DNA of 32,000 bases, taken from Candidatus Lokiarchaeum ossiferum. GTDB taxonomy: Archaea > Asgardarchaeota > Lokiarchaeia > Sigyniarchaeales > Promethearchaeaceae. The notes under the pieces are model-generated. The model searched no databases and was not told the DNA's origin. It worked only from the letters and a program-made list of their open reading frames with translations. The stretch spans positions 1,110,001 to 1,142,000 of the forward strand of contig CP104013.1 of the NCBI GenBank assembly GCA_025839675.1, given 5' to 3'. Shown piece by piece: positions 2,856-30,128 of this stretch. Both the position numbers and the translations under genes were made by a program. The stretch's first letter is position 1; every line of letters begins with the position of its first letter.

Positions 2856-2905
2856 AACGGTTTTTTGATCAAATCTTCTTTACGAAAAATAACAACGGGA
2901 TTCTC

Positions 2906-3715
2906 ATGACAATTAAATCAAAACGTAAGAAATTCGTAAAACATATCATTAAATATAATGTTTTAGATTACTTTATTCCACGATTAAGAAGACTCTACAA
3001 ACGATTGGGTATTTTAGATGTCATGGACAACTGTTTCTATTGGATTGCATGGAAATTATGCAATTGGGCATTTACAAAGGGTCGATTATGGAGTGGTGAT
3101 TCCACCCATGAAGCAAATGTACCACAAACAGGCGCAGGAATTTTCATTGCAAATCATAGTCACGCCTTAGATCCATTCATTTCTGCATGTCGTATTAATC
3201 GAAAAGTCCACTGGGTTTCTAAAATAGAAAATTACTATCTTCCATTCTTCAGACCAATTCTTCAAAGTTCGGGAAGTATTCCAATCCGGCGGGGTGAATC
3301 GGATCAAAATGCTATGCGATTGATCCGCAAAGAACTCTCTCAAGGTGAATTTGTTGGGATGTTTCCTGAAGGAACTCGCACACGAAATGGATATTTGGGA
3401 CGATTTCACACTGGTGCTGCACGATTATGCCTTGAATTCCAAATTCCTTATATTCCAGTTGGAGTTGTTGGCTCTTACAAAAGTAAAATTGGAGATAAAA
3501 TTGATGTCCATGTAGGGCGTGCTCGCTATCCTCCAAAGGGTATGAAAGACAATTACGAAAATGCAAAATGGTTTGCAGAACAAATGCGCCAAGATATTCT
3601 TCGGTTAAGTGGAGCAGTTCCAGATCCACAGTATGTTAAAGCAAAAGCTGTCAATGCTAAGGTGGAAGAAATTCCAACAGCAGTTTCCACTCCAAGCATC
3701 ACCAAGATGCATTAA
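2906..3715 (+). CDS. plsC: 1-acyl-sn-glycerol-3-phosphate acyltransferase-like (PlsC family)
   Basis: The glycerolipid acyltransferase blocks are present: ANHSHALD (HX4D catalytic motif), FPEGTRTRNG (block III), IPYIPVGVVG (block IV). Confidence 0.85.
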   Translation: MTIKSKRKKFVKHIIKYNVLDYFIPRLRRLYKRLGILDVMDNCFYWIAWKLCNWAFTKGRLWSGDSTHEANVPQTGAGIFIANHSHALDPFISACRINRKVHWVSKIENYYLPFFRPILQSSGSIPIRRGESDQNAMRLIRKELSQGEFVGMFPEGTRTRNGYLGRFHTGAARLCLEFQIPYIPVGVVGSYKSKIGDKIDVHVGRARYPPKGMKDNYENAKWFAEQMRQDILRLSGAVPDPQYVKAKAVNAKVEEIPTAVSTPSITKMH

Positions 3716-3827
3716 TCTTTTTTCTTTCTCATTTCTTTATTGCAATCTTTTTATAATTTCGATTGATTTTTGGATTTTAAGAAAATCTGTGTGGTTTCTT
3801 AAAGTAAAACTTCGAGAAAAAATTTAC

Positions 3828-4820
3828 TTAGATTAACGCCAGAAGGTCTTTGATTGCTTTTTCCATCAATTTTCCTTCATGTAAAACCTTATACACTTGA
3901 GTTGTCAGAGGCAAATCGATACCATTCTCTTGAGCAAATTGATATATGGATTCTGCCGCCCAGACACCTTCTGCAACCATACCATGCATCTCATCACTAA
4001 TTTGATCAAGGGTTTTACCTCGCGCTATCTCTTCTCCATAAAAATGGTTTCGCGATAACTTCGAACTACAAGTAGCGATTAAATCCCCAATTCCCGCGAT
4101 TCCAAAGAAAGTCCCTCGGGTACACCCAAAATGTTTGCCAATCCGATTCATTTCATGCAATCCTAAGGTCATGATGCTTCCTTTTGAGTTATTCCCTAAA
4201 TTCAATCCATCACAAAATCCTACGGCAATAGCTGTTATATTTTTAACGGCACCGCAAATTTCAATACCTCGTTCATCGGTGATAGCGTAGGGTTTGAAAT
4301 ATTCCGTATGAAAGAGATCCACGAGCTCAGGCAGGATTTCTTCGTGAATAGAAGCAATTACTGTAGCAGTAGGCTGCATATGCGCCACTTCGGATGAGAG
4401 ATTAGGACCAGATAACGCAGCCACTTTCACATTAGATGGAAGAACTTCCCTTAATACTTCAGACATCAGCTTGAAGGTGGTATATTCCAGCCCTTTGGAG
4501 ACGGAAACCAATTTATATTTTTGATCATTTTTAAAGAAAGGTGATATTTGCTCCGCAATCTTGCGAACGTGGCTGGAGGGAACCGCAAATACAAGAATTT
4601 CCGCGTTTGGAATCACTTCTTCGAATTTTGAAAATGCAACTAAATTTGAAGACAAGTGTATGGAAGGAAGAAATTGCTTGTTTTCGTGAAAATTATTTAT
4701 ATTGTCAACAGTTTCTTGTTCAAATGACCAAATTTTAACAAGAAATCCTTTTGTGGCTAGAAGATTACCAAGTGTTGTTCCCCAACCCCCCGCGCCAATC
4801 ACCGATATTTCCGGTACCAT
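3828..4820 (-). CDS. gpsA: NAD(P)H-dependent sn-glycerol-3-phosphate dehydrogenase (GpsA type)
   Basis: Collinear with bacterial GpsA along its length: VIGAGGWGTTLGNLLA (Rossmann), SKGLE, LSGPNLSSEVA, GAVKNITAIAVGFCDGL, GIGDLIATCSSKLSRN, MVAEGV. I prefer the ATG at 4820 (MVPEISVIGAG). The ORF track starts at a GTG at 4838. Confidence 0.9.
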   Translation of the reverse strand: MVPEISVIGAGGWGTTLGNLLATKGFLVKIWSFEQETVDNINNFHENKQFLPSIHLSSNLVAFSKFEEVIPNAEILVFAVPSSHVRKIAEQISPFFKNDQKYKLVSVSKGLEYTTFKLMSEVLREVLPSNVKVAALSGPNLSSEVAHMQPTATVIASIHEEILPELVDLFHTEYFKPYAITDERGIEICGAVKNITAIAVGFCDGLNLGNNSKGSIMTLGLHEMNRIGKHFGCTRGTFFGIAGIGDLIATCSSKLSRNHFYGEEIARGKTLDQISDEMHGMVAEGVWAAESIYQFAQENGIDLPLTTQVYKVLHEGKLMEKAIKDLLALI

Positions 4821-5006
4821 AAAAATAGGAAAACCCACATTTTATATGAATCTTCAGCTTTAGGTTGAAAATCCTACTTTTGTCCATCGGATTCTTCGGA
4901 TTGGATTCAAAATTTCGTTTTTCATATTTTTTTTCATGTTAGGTTCACCTTCGATTGAGAATATTATCTCAAACTTCATATTATTAGACTTCTTTTTCAC
5001 ATTCAT

Positions 5007-12575: not shown

Positions 12576-12794
12576 ATGGCTAAAAAGAAACGATCATTTG
12601 CATGGAGCCCAGTTCGTAAGCTCATGAAAAAATCTGGTGCCAACATTGTTGCACGAGATGCTGTTGAATTATTAATTATCGACTTAGAAAAGACCGCAAC
12701 TGTCTTGACCAAAAAAGCATTAGGGTTCGCCCATCATGCAAAACGCAAGAAGATTTCCAAAGAAGATATGGATTTGGCAATCAAATACCTCTAA
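12576..12794 (+). CDS. Archaeal histone (HMf-type histone fold) with a short basic N-terminal extension
   Basis: FAWSPVRKLMKKSGANIVARDAVELLIIDLEKTATVLTKKALGFAHHAKRKKISKEDMDLAIKYL aligns with HMfB (PIAPIGRIIKDAGAERVSDDA...ARHAGRKTIKAEDIELA). GGAG lies 10 nt upstream of the ATG. Confidence 0.9.
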   Translation: MAKKKRSFAWSPVRKLMKKSGANIVARDAVELLIIDLEKTATVLTKKALGFAHHAKRKKISKEDMDLAIKYL

Positions 12795-24392: not shown

Positions 24393-27300
24393 CTATTTTG
24401 AATTGTGATCATTTGAGTTCGAGTTAGAACTTTTTTTTGTTTTTGTATTCTTAACCGTTTGTTTTGCAGTCTTTACTTGTGTTTTTCTTGAAGTTTTCTT
24501 AGAAATTTTCTTTTTAAATGCAGTATCTTCTTTGGTAATTATCCGCTTTTGAGATTTTTTTTCAGTCATCGTTTTGTTTTGCAATTCGGTCTTATTTTCT
24601 ATCTTGAGGTTTTCAGATTCAGAGGGAATTTTATTCTCAACGAGATTTGTTGTGTTTGCAAGATCCTTTAGATTTTGTTTTGCAGCACTAAGTTCTTCTT
24701 TAAAGATCGAATCACTTTTAGAACTATTATTATCTCCTTTCGATTTTTTAGGTATTATCTGTATTTCGTTGTTAGCTTCCATTGTATTTATACCAATTTT
24801 CTCTTCTGGATTGGAGAAATCAGCGACTTTATTGGATCGAGGAGGTCGAATAATTTGAGTTTTATCTTCATTTTTTTCAATTTTAGAATCACCAGGCATA
24901 TCTTTCTGTTTACTCTCCTTAAAAATAGATTTCTTTTTGGTTACTGAAGATTCAGGTCCAATTCCATTTATTTTAGATGGTTTTTCCAAATCTTTGGGAG
25001 AATAAAACTTCTTTTGATGAGATTTAGAACTTTGTTTCAATTTTCCTAAACTGAATCTGCTCTTTTTTTCCTGAGATTTTGGCACTTCTTGCCTTCGAGA
25101 GACTTCATCAAGAATTTGACGATCGCTATCGGTCATCAAGATCACTTTATTTTCATCTATAGCATTTTTGGAAATATCTTCAGGTGTTATGTTGTCATAT
25201 AATCCGAAGTTCCGTTGTCTCCAAATGAGAAATACAATAGTAGATATTGAGCCAGCTAGAAGTACAGCTAAAATACTAATAATCCACCAAAGTGCTGCAT
25301 TCCCTCGATTTTCTGTTCTATCTCCAGTACCAATATCTGCATTTGGATCTTCAACCACAATTAAAACACTATCAGAAACGCTAACTCCGGAAGCAGAAAC
25401 GAGAATGCACTCAAATAAATAGGTACCTACAGTTAAATTATTCACGTTGATAGCAATTGGTTCGCCACTTTGCCATTCGCCTTCATAGATGATAACCCCA
25501 TTTTGTTTAATAATTACATTTCCAGGATTAGGAGAATTTCCATACCAAGTAATGGTTGAAGCAGTCTGATTCACATCTAAAACCACATCTTGTGGTTGAG
25601 AAATGGTTGGAGCAGGGTCTAAAACGATTACTACAACGGAGTCATATACCATCATTCCACTCGTCGAATTAAGGACGCACTCATAAAGATACGAACCAGC
25701 GATTAATCCATCAAGATCGATTGAAATGTCAAGCGAAGAAGTCCAATTATCGAGGAATATTACTTCTCCATCTTTCAAGATTTTAACTTTATCAGGTATT
25801 AAAGAGTTTCCCACCCAGGTTATGTTTTGACCAATCTGATTTATAAGAAAAGATTTATCTGGAGGATGGCTTATCTCCATATTTGGTTCTAAGACTGTAA
25901 GAATTACCGCATCATAAACAACGTTTCCAGTGGTTGTATTTAGATAACATTCATAAAGATATACACCTGGCATTAAACCATCAATGGGGAGAATGATATT
26001 TTCTGAAGAATTCCAAGGATTCTCAAAAATCAGAATATTGTCTTTAAAAATTTTAATATGATCCGGTATTGGGGACGTCCCTACCCAAGTGATATTATTA
26101 TTTAAACTCAAAACAATATAGGAACGATCCTCAGGATGTGAAATTGTGGGAGGAGGTTCTAATACTGTGATAGTGATGGAGTCATATGCAATTTCATTTG
26201 AAGTGGAATTAACATAGAGTTCAAAAGTGTATATTCCTGGATCTAAGTCAGCAATCTCGATAATAAAGGGTTCATCACTATTCCATGATGTATTAGACTC
26301 AATTAATAAACCATTCCGATAAATTAACGCAGTATCTTCTAGAGGTGTATTTACCGACCATATAATTGGATTAACAAACTCTGTAACATTGAACACCACA
26401 TCTTCTGTGGCTGTTATTATAGGATGTGTGCGAATTACTGTAACCAGAACACTATCACTTGAAAAATCACCTTGCGTTGAATTTACAAAGCACGTATACT
26501 GATAAATTCCGACTTGTAATGAATCAATATTAATTAGTATCGGAATATTGTTCTCCCATAACCCTGTTGCAATTATACTTCCATTCCGAGTTATATTGTA
26601 ATAGTTGGGATCAGTAGTATTAGCATTCCAACTGATGCTAAAACCCGTGTACCCAAAATAATAGGATACATCGCCCGTGGATGAAATATTTGGTTTTGGT
26701 TGTAAGTTATAACCATCCCACCAAATAGGAAAACGATCTTCCCCATTGGGCAATATATAATATGACATATTACCAATATAATCATCATCCCAATCATTTC
26801 CAGCAAAGTCATCCCAGTAATTTCCCATTGTACCATTATCCCATAAATTTAGAAAGCCTTCATCAACTGCATGCAATCCATTAGATGAAAAATTATTGAA
26901 ATAAATTTCACTAGATATCGCATTTGCATATAATCCAATTCCAATCCCTGTAGTATTCCAAATATAATTAGAAACAATTAAACTGTCTTGACAATCAGTG
27001 ATTATATAAATTCCAAATGCTGTATTGTTAGAAATGCTACAATTGATAATCTCATTAGAATCACAATTGCTTTCCACTTTAATCCCATATTCTGAGTTAA
27101 ATGAAATTGAATTATTATAAATTTCATTGGAATCACAGAGATCATGAAGGAAAATTCCATGTTGGTTGTTGTATGAAATATTATTATAAAGAATTTGACA
27201 ATAATCGCTATCATCATCAATCCAAATTCCATGTAAGTTGTTATAGGATATATTATTCCATTTAATGAAGGATGAATCGCTTCTTTCATTAATATAAATC

Positions 27301-30128
27301 CCATAGCCATAATCCGCCGCACCATTGAGTCCATTATGTGAAATCGTATTATAATATATGGAGTTATTTATTGAGTCAGTCTCAATATAAATTCCATGAT
27401 ACTGAGTATTGCTTACATTATTGTAAAGAATTTGATTAAAACTACTTTCATCATCATAAAACATACCATAATTTCCTGACACGTTGTTATCTGAAATTTC
27501 ATTGTATTGACATTCATCAAGAAAATAAATTCCATACCGATTATTTCTCATAAATGAATTACTAATAATATAATTGAAATTACAATAATCTTGGAAATAT
27601 ATCCCATCCCACTTATTATCCGATATGACGTTTTTTTTCAAAATGTTTCCATTACAATGGGATAAAAGTGAAATACCTTGTGAATAAGAACCAATACTTT
27701 GCGAAAAAATATTATTTTCAATTAAATTATTATTACAATAATTATCAAGGTAAATTCCATCGCTATAGCTGTTCCTGGCTCTTGAAATATTGTTTCCTTG
27801 AAAATTATTGAATGAACAATATTGATTGAGGTGCACAAGATGATTTTTACTGTAAGTTATATTGCACAGAGTGAAATTATTATTGTTTGAATAATAGAGA
27901 TAAACTCCATTCAAAATTGCTCCAGTAAAATTGCAGTTAGTTATTCCAAGGTAATTTGATTTGTAAAGAAATATTCCATATTGACGATTGGTAATATCAA
28001 GATCTTCAATAATAGAATTATTTGTATTAATCAAATATAATTGACCTCCATTTGAAAAATCCTCTGGTAATAATCCATCTTCATCAACATAATAATAAAT
28101 ATATTTATTATCAACTGAATTGTTTAAATTAAAGAAATGGGTGTAATGGTTTTTGTTTGTTAGAGTTCCTTCTATGCCGAAACCAGTTTTAGTAAAATTA
28201 TTATCCTCAATAAAAAAAAATTCACATGATGAAAGATATAAACCATAATCATTGTTGTCAAAAATTTTGTTATAAGATATATTAACTTCTAAGCAACCTG
28301 TATTAAACTTAACTCCATAATATGCATTTCCACCATTTTTAGAAACCAAATTAGAATGAATTGATACATTTTTAGAAGTAGATAATTCGATTCCATGACG
28401 AGTATTTTCTGAAATGTTATTGTTGAAGATTGTTAAATTTTCTGCCAAATTATAGGATATAGCAGCTCCTGAGATTCCATATAAATTTTTATTAATTTGA
28501 TTTCTCGAGATTTCACAGTTATCAAAATATGATAAATGTATTCCTTGGCCTCCGTTGTTACTGATCTCATTTCTTGAAATATTGATATTTTGACAATAAG
28601 AAGTAAAGGAAGCTCCATAGTTCGTATTATAATTAATGCTGTTACCAACCACAGTTGTATTTATGCAATATCGATCAACATGCAATCCATCATTTTGACA
28701 ATATTTCAGATCATTTAATTCAACCGTAATATTTTCACAATAGGTATCTAAATAAATACCATAACCAGGTGACCCATAGCTATTATAATTATATCCTTGG
28801 ATACCATCGATATTATTACTCGAGATATTGCTATTTATCGTCTTATAAAAGTAAATCCCATCATAGTATGAGTCAGATATAATATTGTCGATAACTGATA
28901 TATTTTTACATTCAATCGACACAACACCGTAATCAGTATATGAAAAATCTTGATTGGAAATTATCGAATCATTACATGTTATTAAATATATTTGAGCGGC
29001 ATTTGTATAATTTAGTTCAGTTAAATTTGCGAGATTTTTAAAATAAAATATTTCCTTTCCATCCACAAAATTATCTTCGATGGTGTGGGTGTAGTATTCA
29101 ATATCAAAAGATGAACCTCTTGCCCCATATATCCCCAAACCTGATTCAGTTAAAGTATTACTTTCAATTATCAAAAAACTCGAACTTGATATTCTGATCC
29201 CAAAAATTGTACTTTCACTAATTGAATTGAAAGATATATTATTGTAATTTGAATTACTCCTGATAGATATTCCAGAATATAAGGAAGTTGAGATAGAATT
29301 ATATGTAATATTATTTTCCAAACAATTAGAAGATAGTATTATTCCATTATTATTTGCATTCGAAATGGTGTTATCTGTTATATTATTGAAATTACTACTT
29401 ATTAGATGAATTCCATCTCTTTTTGGAGTATCCATCGTGTTTTGAGTAATGTTTGATAATTCACAACCAGTTAGATGGAGTGCATCATAAACATGTTTGA
29501 ATATATTATCGAAAATGGTAATATTTTTAAAATTTGATGTTGAATAAATCCCATAATAGTTTTGTGTACTTTTACCTGTAATATTATTACTACTAATCGT
29601 AATATTTTCACATTTATCATAGAAATTTATTGCTCGGTAGTTGTCATTGAATTTGTTATTAGTTAAGATCCCATTAGTAACATTTGAAAAGAAAATACCA
29701 CCATCTCTGTAATAATATGTATATTCATATCCGATAATCTCACAATTCTGAATTATGAAATGTGATTTAGAATCATGAATATAGAGCCCTTTATAATCAT
29801 TTAATGCAAGATCTTCTAAAGTAACATTCTCAATTATATATGGATCGCCTTGAGTACCAGAACCGGAACACCAATCCTGAGATACAGCCCAAGACCAGTT
29901 TTTAGCACCAATACCCGTAGCATCTCCATCAATTTCCAAATTGGTAAACTCCCAGTTTATAGAAGATTTAGGTTGAATTTGATTTTTAAATTGTTCAAAT
30001 CCATGATCAGAACTATCGAAACGAGATTTGAAAGAATTTGCACAAAATCCAAGGATAATAACTATAGTTAGGTAGGATAAAATAAAACAATAGTGCTTTT
30101 TTAGTGATAATTTAGTAAATAATTTCAT
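24393..30128 (-). CDS. Giant (1911 aa) type-I membrane surface protein: signal, about 1050 aa of right-handed parallel beta-helix (PbH1) repeats, 5 Ig-like modules, a TM helix and a ~275-aa Lys/Ser-rich cytoplasmic tail
   Basis: PbH1-like periodicity of the type NNITxNxISxNxxxGIxL runs throughout aa ~95-1130. Five ~90-aa repeats span aa 1146-1595. The TM helix ALWWIISILAVLLAGSISTIVFLIW is at nt 25221-25295. The low-complexity K/S/E tail is at nt 24396-25220. Confidence 0.9.
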   Translation of the reverse strand: MKLFTKLSLKKHYCFILSYLTIVIILGFCANSFKSRFDSSDHGFEQFKNQIQPKSSINWEFTNLEIDGDATGIGAKNWSWAVSQDWCSGSGTQGDPYIIENVTLEDLALNDYKGLYIHDSKSHFIIQNCEIIGYEYTYYYRDGGIFFSNVTNGILTNNKFNDNYRAINFYDKCENITISSNNITGKSTQNYYGIYSTSNFKNITIFDNIFKHVYDALHLTGCELSNITQNTMDTPKRDGIHLISSNFNNITDNTISNANNNGIILSSNCLENNITYNSISTSLYSGISIRSNSNYNNISFNSISESTIFGIRISSSSFLIIESNTLTESGLGIYGARGSSFDIEYYTHTIEDNFVDGKEIFYFKNLANLTELNYTNAAQIYLITCNDSIISNQDFSYTDYGVVSIECKNISVIDNIISDSYYDGIYFYKTINSNISSNNIDGIQGYNYNSYGSPGYGIYLDTYCENITVELNDLKYCQNDGLHVDRYCINTTVVGNSINYNTNYGASFTSYCQNINISRNEISNNGGQGIHLSYFDNCEISRNQINKNLYGISGAAISYNLAENLTIFNNNISENTRHGIELSTSKNVSIHSNLVSKNGGNAYYGVKFNTGCLEVNISYNKIFDNNDYGLYLSSCEFFFIEDNNFTKTGFGIEGTLTNKNHYTHFFNLNNSVDNKYIYYYVDEDGLLPEDFSNGGQLYLINTNNSIIEDLDITNRQYGIFLYKSNYLGITNCNFTGAILNGVYLYYSNNNNFTLCNITYSKNHLVHLNQYCSFNNFQGNNISRARNSYSDGIYLDNYCNNNLIENNIFSQSIGSYSQGISLLSHCNGNILKKNVISDNKWDGIYFQDYCNFNYIISNSFMRNNRYGIYFLDECQYNEISDNNVSGNYGMFYDDESSFNQILYNNVSNTQYHGIYIETDSINNSIYYNTISHNGLNGAADYGYGIYINERSDSSFIKWNNISYNNLHGIWIDDDSDYCQILYNNISYNNQHGIFLHDLCDSNEIYNNSISFNSEYGIKVESNCDSNEIINCSISNNTAFGIYIITDCQDSLIVSNYIWNTTGIGIGLYANAISSEIYFNNFSSNGLHAVDEGFLNLWDNGTMGNYWDDFAGNDWDDDYIGNMSYYILPNGEDRFPIWWDGYNLQPKPNISSTGDVSYYFGYTGFSISWNANTTDPNYYNITRNGSIIATGLWENNIPILINIDSLQVGIYQYTCFVNSTQGDFSSDSVLVTVIRTHPIITATEDVVFNVTEFVNPIIWSVNTPLEDTALIYRNGLLIESNTSWNSDEPFIIEIADLDPGIYTFELYVNSTSNEIAYDSITITVLEPPPTISHPEDRSYIVLSLNNNITWVGTSPIPDHIKIFKDNILIFENPWNSSENIILPIDGLMPGVYLYECYLNTTTGNVVYDAVILTVLEPNMEISHPPDKSFLINQIGQNITWVGNSLIPDKVKILKDGEVIFLDNWTSSLDISIDLDGLIAGSYLYECVLNSTSGMMVYDSVVVIVLDPAPTISQPQDVVLDVNQTASTITWYGNSPNPGNVIIKQNGVIIYEGEWQSGEPIAINVNNLTVGTYLFECILVSASGVSVSDSVLIVVEDPNADIGTGDRTENRGNAALWWIISILAVLLAGSISTIVFLIWRQRNFGLYDNITPEDISKNAIDENKVILMTDSDRQILDEVSRRQEVPKSQEKKSRFSLGKLKQSSKSHQKKFYSPKDLEKPSKINGIGPESSVTKKKSIFKESKQKDMPGDSKIEKNEDKTQIIRPPRSNKVADFSNPEEKIGINTMEANNEIQIIPKKSKGDNNSSKSDSIFKEELSAAKQNLKDLANTTNLVENKIPSESENLKIENKTELQNKTMTEKKSQKRIITKEDTAFKKKISKKTSRKTQVKTAKQTVKNTKTKKSSNSNSNDHNSK
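25344..26693 (-). repeat. Five tandem ~270-nt (90-aa) Ig-like coding repeats inside the giant gene
   Basis: Each module has the shared pattern P.IS.P.D......Q..NITW.G.S..P....I..NG..I....W.S...I.I...L..G.Y.YEC.L.S..G....DSV...V.(E/D)P. Example: PPTISHPEDRSYIVLSLNNNITWVGTSPIPDHIKIF.... Confidence 0.8.

Follow-up and report, generated by a model that had tools for sequence, protein, structure and literature searches.

A DPANN-type GpsA and a PlsC-fold acyltransferase in Candidatus Lokiarchaeum ossiferum: candidate genes of a G3P-based glycerolipid branch

A 32,000-nucleotide stretch of the chromosome of 'Candidatus Lokiarchaeum ossiferum' Loki-B35 (G000:C1:1110001-1142000; hereafter the window) carries two genes of glycerolipid metabolism side by side, one for a PF01553 acyltransferase of the PlsC fold (P0001) and one for GpsA (P0161), a putative sn-glycerol-3-phosphate (G3P) dehydrogenase. 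Both genes occur in a clade of Lokiarchaeia in which neither the AraM-like sn-glycerol-1-phosphate dehydrogenase (G1PDH) nor geranylgeranylglyceryl phosphate synthase (GGGPS) was found, and the closest relatives of this GpsA outside the Asgard archaea lie in a probable operon with acyltransferase genes in DPANN archaea. The co-distribution and the DPANN operon support the view that the two genes are relevant to G3P-based lipids of an Asgard archaeon, and we give roughly an even chance to a glycerolipid branch that would be fed with G3P by GpsA and acylated by PF01553 paralogues. The origin of G3P ester lipids in the archaeal host lineage is a long-standing gap in models of eukaryogenesis.

Distribution and ancestry of GpsA

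This type of GpsA was detected in 6 of 400 genomes of the phylum, all belonging to three genera of one family; a distant type (30-35% identity) was detected in four more genomes, from two other families. The EF-2 tree showed that the three genera (g1, g2 and g4, that is Lokiarchaeum, Promethearchaeum including MK-D1, and one further genus; nine genomes, three of them closed) form one clade (support 98), with g6, g26 and g3 as successive outgroups. An orthologue of P0001 (at least 57% identity) was present in all nine genomes of this clade and in none of the five other genomes of the family, and GpsA was present in six of the nine, missing only in metagenome-assembled genomes (MAGs) that are 74-85% complete, and in none of the five. 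For the G1P pathway, queries taken from within the family found the AraM-like G1PDH in 0/9 genomes of the clade vs 5/5 of the others, and GGGPS in 0/9 vs 3/5. The MK-D1 report likewise lists no GGGPS. True EgsA was found in other orders of the class only, and GGGPS is otherwise near-universal in the order, being present in 93 of the 102 genomes of the sister family f2; at E<=1e-20, the same 102 genomes gave no EgsA, no GpsA and 14 AraM-like G1PDHs.

Within the L. ossiferum genome, the whole-genome check for egsA proposed in a preliminary description of the locus showed that canonical EgsA is absent: the best score against NF002022 was 29 bits (cut-off 413), and all candidates were iron-dependent alcohol dehydrogenases or AroB. 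The family-derived query for AraM-like G1PDH gave no match in this genome, and the sole match to the GGGPS family PF01884 was a HisA/HisIE fusion. On family-level evidence, the genome has two CarS-like loci and two UbiA genes, among them a DGGGPS-like one. It further carries four genes of the PF01553 family and eight for CDP-alcohol transferases. The GGGPS-adjacent UbiA of the relative G039 shares 40% identity with one of the two UbiA proteins; a non-homologous GGGPS substitute was sought beside the retained gene, where the neighbours (an MFS transporter, an AAA ATPase and a VWA protein) offered no candidate.

The GpsA open reading frame (ORF) spans 3828-4838 on the minus strand, and an in-frame GTG at 4838 would extend the protein by six residues; since the annotated protein has 330 residues, translation most likely begins at the ATG (4820) and not at this GTG. 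GpsA scored 161.5 bits against PF01210 (cut-off 23.1) and 175.9 bits against PF07479 (cut-off 25), and its scores, like those of the acyltransferase, are far above chance. It passed the NCBIfam subfamily models NF000942 (371 bits vs 257) and NF000940 (306 vs 202) and remained under the cut-off of every equivalog model (best NF000941, 322 bits vs 423), so that its membership is given at the subfamily level. The best solved relatives are the enzymes of Coxiella burnetii (3K96, 208 bits) and Thermotoga maritima (1Z82, 201 bits), which align over the full length, including the Rossmann motif GAGGWGT and the SKG, GAVKNI, GIGDL..TC and SRN blocks. K109, K193, N194, D246, T250 and R257 (P0161 numbering) are invariant across 14 archaeal relatives; we take the conserved K, N, D, T and R of the SKG, VKN, GDLxxT and SRN blocks to be substrate-binding, from what is known of GPD1/GpsA structures. 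From its family membership and these blocks, we infer that GpsA would reduce dihydroxyacetone phosphate to G3P with NAD(P)H.

The GpsA phylogeny (IQ-TREE, 65 rows, root unknown) showed that the Loki sequences form one clade (100/98), which joins sequences labelled Hod- and Helarchaeota, with a GpsA of 65% identity, in an Asgard clade (100/100). The Asgard clade is sister to a Nano-/Woesearchaeota subclade (97/95) and nested among Nano- and Woesearchaeota sequences, and the archaeal-type clade of Asgard and DPANN sequences is set off from bacterial GpsA (100/99). Among the matches listed, identities to the L. ossiferum protein are at most 44% for bacterial, 46-58% for DPANN and 65-80% for Asgard sequences; a second 'L. 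ossiferum' genome (a 6.27-Mb contig) encodes a GpsA that is 96% identical. These relationships point to a probable inter-archaeal transfer between DPANN and Asgard lineages, and not to a bacterial one, as the source of GpsA; the direction of transfer follows only from the nesting. In a scan of metagenome contigs, a single protein as query gave no matches and an alignment query did. The GpsA of a chromosome-level Thermodesulfobacteriota MAG (L021:5339-6963) likewise belongs to the DPANN/Asgard clade, and a single PF01553 gene lies immediately upstream of its gene; the module may have passed from archaea to bacteria.

Twelve loci of DPANN type (L017, L156, L145, L148-L151, L155, L157 and L018-L020) have gpsA directly after two tandem PF01553 genes of about 210 codons each, on the same strand and with gaps of at most 30 bp. 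Of the records that bear a name, two are Woesearchaeota, one is Nanoarchaeia and one is a MAG labelled Methanosarcinales. Because the genes are co-directional and nearly abutting, they are probably an operon. In both loci with Pfam annotation (L017 and L156), genes for an acyl-CoA dehydrogenase, EtfB and a ferredoxin-fused EtfA precede plsC-plsC-gpsA; in the Woesearchaeota MAG (L017:1536-8156), Dxr follows gpsA. The acyltransferases of the cluster fall into two conserved orthologous groups. The acd-etfB-etfA-plsC-plsC-gpsA cluster looks like a compact module with which DPANN archaea would convert acyl-CoA to phosphatidate. Castelle et al. (2021; PMC8204110) placed bacterial G3P dehydrogenase (G3PDH) near methylerythritol phosphate (MEP) genes in Woesearchaeota, and no description of the plsC-plsC-gpsA arrangement was found in the searchable literature, which excludes most subscription journals. 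A plsC gene directly upstream of gpsA also occurs in some Actinomycetota.

Two observations concern the MAGs used for comparison. In-frame TAG codons lie inside conserved genes, with two in a GGGPS gene (G063:C58:30965-31768) and one in each of the two EF-2 copies of G003 (C200:664-2850 and C272:19905-21992); they could be sequencing errors or reflect TAG recoding in some Lokiarchaeia MAGs. The EF-2 of G089, a family-f1 MAG that is 80% complete in 880 contigs, groups with f2 (C235:5185-7338, L114), which suggests that the contig is mis-binned or that the MAG is assigned to the wrong family.

The acyltransferase and its paralogues

P0001 matched PF01553 at 96 bits (cut-off 23), and its HX4D box (H84-D89) and FPEGTR motif (F153-R158) are well preserved: across 28 relatives, H84, D89, F153 and P154 never vary, and conservation reaches at least 90% at E155, G156 and R158. 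It scored 87.3 bits against the curated PlsC model TIGR00530 and is filed as a PlsC-fold acyltransferase, not as an established PlsC, because the cut-off of that model is 102.95; the E. coli-type equivalog NF011593 gave 33.6 bits vs 501. The AlphaFold2 model (pLDDT 85.9, pTM 0.80) begins with helices at residues 4-16, 19-34 and 37-57. The top Foldseek matches of the model were chains A and B of T. maritima PlsC (TmPlsC, 5KYM; E 1e-8, TM 0.58/0.64, about 250 columns), followed by GPAT1, PatA, LpxM and a plant glycerol-3-phosphate acyltransferase (GPAT). The preliminary description had raised the question whether the protein might belong with non-lipid acyltransferases; the result showed that it groups with lipid acyltransferases, and the gene identities it had given for P0001 and GpsA were both correct. 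The most likely reaction of P0001 is acyl transfer to a glycerophosphate-based acceptor, with acyl-CoA as the probable donor, an assignment from sequence and fold that does not discriminate among GPAT, lysophosphatidate acyltransferase (LPAAT) and other lysophospholipid acyltransferase (LPLAT) specificities.

The orthogroup of P0001 (support 99) is nested among the other paralogues of the genome and a fused double acyltransferase of about 560 residues from the sister family f2, and generic PlsC proteins of about 200 residues fall outside this radiation. The named members of the radiation are Promethearchaeota or Lokiarchaeota, plus one 'Bathyarchaeota' MAG, and a search with P0001 at E<=1e-30 returned 17 representatives out of 1.84 billion. 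A second PlsC tree took in non-homologous upstream ORFs (ETF and others), which formed a separate long-branch group and left the groups cited here unaffected. The fused protein, with two PF01553 domains, is present in 86 of the 102 f2 genomes (for example at G033:C5:103350-104042), and L. ossiferum carries this pair as two separate tandem genes.

Elsewhere in the genome, at G000:C1:684574-687736 (L139:574-3736), a FadD-like AMP-binding ligase (302 bits) is divergent from a 439-residue LpxL/Lip_A_acyltrans-like protein and may provide a way to activate exogenous fatty acids. On the minus strand at G000:C1:3421690-3427068 (L140:3690-9069), a tandem pair of PF01553 genes stands directly upstream of two DUF2229/HGD-D genes and a BcrAD_BadFG ATPase gene, all in one orientation.

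A G3P-based branch weighed against other roles

The course of events that we propose is one lineage-specific rewiring. The clade of three genera would have lost the AraM-like G1PDH, and presumably GGGPS, which was likewise not found there, and would have gained the DPANN-type GpsA and evolved an extra acyltransferase paralogue. GpsA would supply the G3P backbone for a glycerolipid branch, PF01553 paralogues would acylate this backbone, and the PlsA/Ger-like reductase cassette beside two other paralogues could process those lipids further. These archaea would then have lipids whose glycerol shows the bacterial/eukaryotic stereochemistry, in addition to canonical G1P lipids or in their place. 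A stronger form, in which the clade replaced G1PDH and GGGPS with the DPANN-type GpsA and builds a substantial part of its membrane on G3P (as acyl esters, fatty-acid-derived ethers made via the PlsA/Ger-like cassette, or isoprenoid ethers), is in our judgement rather unlikely.

Several findings weigh against a G3P-based branch. The DPANN acyltransferases lie outside the Loki radiation, so that the Loki copies are not their orthologues. PF01553 paralogues occur in 86 of 102 Lokiarchaeales genomes that have no GpsA, implying that these acyltransferases do not need GpsA. The co-distribution within the family amounts to one evolutionary event, not a repeated association, and is thus suggestive and no statistical proof. 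Searches of the genome found neither PlsX nor PlsY, nor PlsB, and no ketoacyl synthase (KAS) of a fatty-acid synthase; those for KAS (PF00109) and acyl carrier protein (ACP; PF00550) gave weak or non-specific matches only, with one weak ACP-like ORF. A GlpA-like gene (547 bits) and FGGY kinases (426 bits vs the GlpK model) are present, and G3P could for that reason mainly serve glycerol metabolism; in favour of the branch, GpsA is the biosynthetic enzyme in bacteria that have both it and the GlpA type. G3P is also a head-group donor for archaetidylglycerol. Finally, the lipid analysis of MK-D1 gave isoprenoid hydrocarbons after ether cleavage (phytane and biphytanes with 0-2 rings), and its authors reported no ester-lipid genes; the ether-cleavage method may have missed esters.

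The chief alternative, possible if somewhat doubtful, is that the two genes do unrelated housekeeping. GpsA would then serve head groups, redox or glycerol metabolism, the acyltransferase would remodel or salvage lipids such as lysolipids from bacterial partners, and the bulk membrane would stay isoprenoid ether lipid, with G1PDH and GGGPS replaced by unrecognised enzymes or with the lipid salvaged from the methanogen partner. Such a division of labour agrees with the phytane and biphytanes of MK-D1, with the retention of DGGGPS-like UbiA, CarS and many CDP-alcohol transferases, with the GlpA-like and FGGY genes, with the wide occurrence of PF01553 apart from GpsA, with the failure to find a fatty-acid synthase in the genome, and with the lack of conserved adjacency of the two genes. 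It does not account for the facts that GpsA and the extra paralogue occur in exactly the clade missing both G1PDH and GGGPS and that the nearest GpsA relatives stand in plsC-plsC-gpsA operons, and no G1PDH or GGGPS substitute was found, the neighbours of UbiA giving no candidate.

Two cultured archaea, L. ossiferum and MK-D1, carry GpsA and the clade-specific paralogue and have no recognisable G1PDH or GGGPS, and gpsA is represented in RNA libraries of L. ossiferum. With these genes, what had been metagenome-based speculation becomes a concrete experiment on existing cultures (lipid stereochemistry, linkage and enzyme assays), in which the question of the 'lipid divide' is testable. If the stronger form holds, there are living archaea near the eukaryotic stem with the bacterial/eukaryotic glycerol stereochemistry.

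The locus and its comparison with known systems

The features of the locus are collected in Table 1. As the preliminary description had stated, the two genes are convergent (tail-to-tail), exactly 112 bp apart and about 8 kb from a gene for an archaeal histone; the histone-fold ORF lies 7.7-8.9 kb from them. The spacer is T-rich. The archaeal-style promoters that had been noted correspond to the two TATA-like boxes.

Table 1. Features of the acyltransferase-gpsA locus (positions in the window)
Feature	Position	Strand	Size	Basis or remark
TATA-like box tttatataaa	2847..2856	+		Upstream of acyltransferase gene; read from sequence
Common left end of RNA contigs	2870..2875	+		Probable transcription start of acyltransferase gene; hint only
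PlsC-fold PF01553 acyltransferase gene (P0001)	2906..3715	+	269 aa	Pfam and fold match
Convergent spacer	3716..3827		112 bp	Oligo-T runs on both strands, likely terminators; read from sequence
gpsA (P0161)	3828..4820	-	330 aa	PF01210, PF07479 and NF000942
TATA-like box ttcatataaa	4841..4850	-		Upstream of gpsA; read from sequence
Archaeal histone gene	12576..12794	+		PF00808; context marker

In four metatranscriptome libraries from one study, 78-88% of the words sampled from this stretch were found, and RNA contigs of these libraries that are 100% identical to it cover 2870-4811. In three of the four runs the left contig ends lie at 2870, 2875 and 2874, with unrelated loose letters ahead of each. 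These ends are about 20-27 nt downstream of the TATA-like box and 31-36 nt upstream of the ATG, and the distance from box to RNA end would be a typical archaeal promoter spacing, although contig ends alone cannot prove a transcript 5' end. The right contig ends, at 4802-4811, fall just inside gpsA, and the ATG at 4820 follows the ttcatataaa box by about 25 nt, consistent with a leaderless gpsA mRNA that would start near this ATG. The depth per contig is 85-13,361 here, and contigs of these runs that cover the flanking genes for a peptidase and EamA gave 0-69, a contrast that argues against uniform DNA carry-over; depths of Logan contigs are unsuitable for ranking gene expression. The RNA contigs cross the spacer continuously, by which a single transcript is not shown, and the acyltransferase gene and gpsA are two separately transcribed genes.

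Adjacency of gpsA and the acyltransferase gene was seen in none of the relatives inspected, two closed genomes included. In MK-D1, whose genome is closed (G106), the orthologues are found at 2.93 and 0.58 Mb, a distance of 2.3 Mb; in the closed genome G055 they are found at 1.97 and 3.50 Mb, a distance of 1.5 Mb; and they lie on different contigs in G018, G019 and G079. In G078, a MAG of the same genus, other genes follow the acyltransferase gene, and the flanks of GpsA on three Loki-type metagenome contigs (L142-L144) contain no acyltransferase. In four genomes, MK-D1 among them (loci compared: L098, L100, L103 and L106), a histone gene copy with 94-97% identity was found at a distance of 1-7 kb from the orthologue of the acyltransferase gene, whereas the neighbours of gpsA differ in every genome compared. 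In MK-D1, the neighbours of the two genes (a DNA methylase, a histidine phosphatase, a P-type ATPase and an ATG22-like MFS transporter) gave no clue. The kept linkage of acyltransferase and histone together with the changing neighbours of gpsA places gpsA in a variable stretch of about 9 kb.

In L. ossiferum, the 8.9 kb between the acyltransferase and histone genes hold gpsA, an EamA transporter, a beta-propeller protein, a TetR regulator, a truncated AhpC-like ORF and a NamA-type old yellow enzyme (OYE) reductase that scored 434 bits (bacterial equivalog cut-off 431). GC content climbs to 39.5% at 8-10 kb of the window, within this interval, which looks like a variable insertion zone. The side-by-side position of the two genes in L. 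ossiferum is a local accident. The weight that had been placed on their physical pairing is thus not borne out, the genes being convergent, without an operon and unlinked in the relatives inspected. That the pair is a dedicated two-gene module whose tail-to-tail adjacency was selected is most improbable and largely refuted: the short gap, the RNA contigs that run across both genes and the plsC-gpsA linkage in DPANN archaea and some Actinomycetota would fit such a module, but the convergent orientation means that there is no shared promoter, each gene has its own TATA-like box, the orthologues are far apart or unlinked in the relatives inspected, and it is the histone gene, not gpsA, that stays with the acyltransferase.

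Bacterial contamination, a chimeric assembly or a recent bacterial transfer, which might be suspected because both families are typical of bacteria and PF01553 was found in 0/4 archaeal control genomes, is refuted for practical purposes by the single circular 6.04-Mb chromosome, the uniform GC content of the window (28-40%), the orthologues in the independently closed MK-D1 genome, the archaeal clade of GpsA with at most 44% bacterial identity, as against 50-57% for DPANN sequences, among the matches listed, and an acyltransferase radiation whose named members are almost all Asgard. The source genome is one closed contig of 6,035,313 bp with 33.6% GC, described as the circular chromosome of 'Candidatus Lokiarchaeum ossiferum' from the enrichment Loki-B35 (PMC9834061), and the doubt whether the contig might be bacterial or chimeric was settled in favour of an archaeal replicon from a cultured Asgard archaeon. 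Neither gpsA nor P0001 is a recent bacterial import, and 'bacterial-type', as the preliminary description had put it, does not hold as a statement of origin, GpsA lying in the Asgard and DPANN clade (100/99) and the acyltransferase inside a PF01553 radiation with almost exclusively Asgard named members.

Scans of the window for tRNA genes and Rfam families gave no matches. At 24393-30128 (minus strand), a giant ORF of 1911 codons encodes nine right-handed beta-helix/NosD repeats and a PKD-like domain and occupies the part of the window with the lowest GC content (28-30%).

The published record on Asgard G3P is divided by enzyme type. The statement that G3PDH has been reported in Lokiarchaeota stands for the GlpA type only; the analyses consulted credit Asgard archaea with PlsC/PlsY-like genes and state that GpsA is absent from them. 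Manoharan et al. (2019) found G3PDH/gps in no Loki or Thor genome and AraM-like G1PDH in Lokis, and a 2019 preprint identified the Asgard G3PDH as GlpA, not GpsA. One published analysis describes Asgard archaea as without a G3P source and shows that G1P as well as G3P is a substrate for PlsY and PlsC of bacteria; a 2026 review states that Asgard lipids remain to be determined. Ester-lipid genes in Asgard archaea are otherwise already known, and the NCBI annotation already carries both genes discussed here; in the searchable literature, no paper was found in which P. syntrophicum or L. ossiferum is linked with GpsA. According to PMC6737245 and PMC6431249, which cite the study, Villanueva et al. 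(2017) listed GlpA/GlpD, PlsC and PlsY, and not GpsA, in Lokiarchaeum GC14_75 and Marine Group II/III. As far as these citing papers convey it, that proposal shares with ours the idea of an EgsA-less archaeon that has PlsC-like genes and may make G3P-based or chimeric lipids; going by the same accounts, L. ossiferum differs in having GpsA, in being without PlsY and in missing GGGPS as well.

Bacterial GpsA (3K96 and 1Z82) has the two-domain architecture of PF01210 and PF07479 in common with the L. ossiferum protein. Among the sequences sampled, however, bacterial enzymes are at most 44% identical to it and form a separate clade, and L. ossiferum is without the PlsX, PlsY and PlsB that use G3P in the bacterial way. 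The GpsA of Archaeoglobus fulgidus (1TXG) is likewise an NAD(P)H-dependent G3PDH in an ether-lipid archaeon, and it matches L. ossiferum GpsA at 132 bits, well below the bacterial enzymes. This precedent implies that such an enzyme need not mean bacterial-type membranes; A. fulgidus keeps G1PDH and GGGPS, unlike L. ossiferum.

TmPlsC (5KYM) aligns with P0001 in the HX4D, FPEGTR and IPV blocks, with 18% identity and a sequence match of 23 bits. In the predicted model, the N-terminal helices of P0001 precede the catalytic domain, as the membrane-anchoring motif does in TmPlsC. Unlike TmPlsC, P0001 has three such helices over about 57 residues and sits in a PF01553 radiation with several paralogues per genome, the named members of which are nearly all Asgard. 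The cassette adjoining two other PF01553 genes has the same domain set as the PlsA/PlsR/Ger reductases that convert ester to ether lipids, and Sahonero-Canavesi et al. reported Ger homologues in MK-D1.

The closest parallel is the Woese-/Nanoarchaeota cluster. The cluster is co-directional, whereas the L. ossiferum genes are convergent and accidentally adjacent. Outside the Asgard archaea, its GpsA is the nearest relative and shares a single clade with the Asgard proteins, and its hosts are archaea that pair GpsA with PF01553 acyltransferases, as L. ossiferum does.

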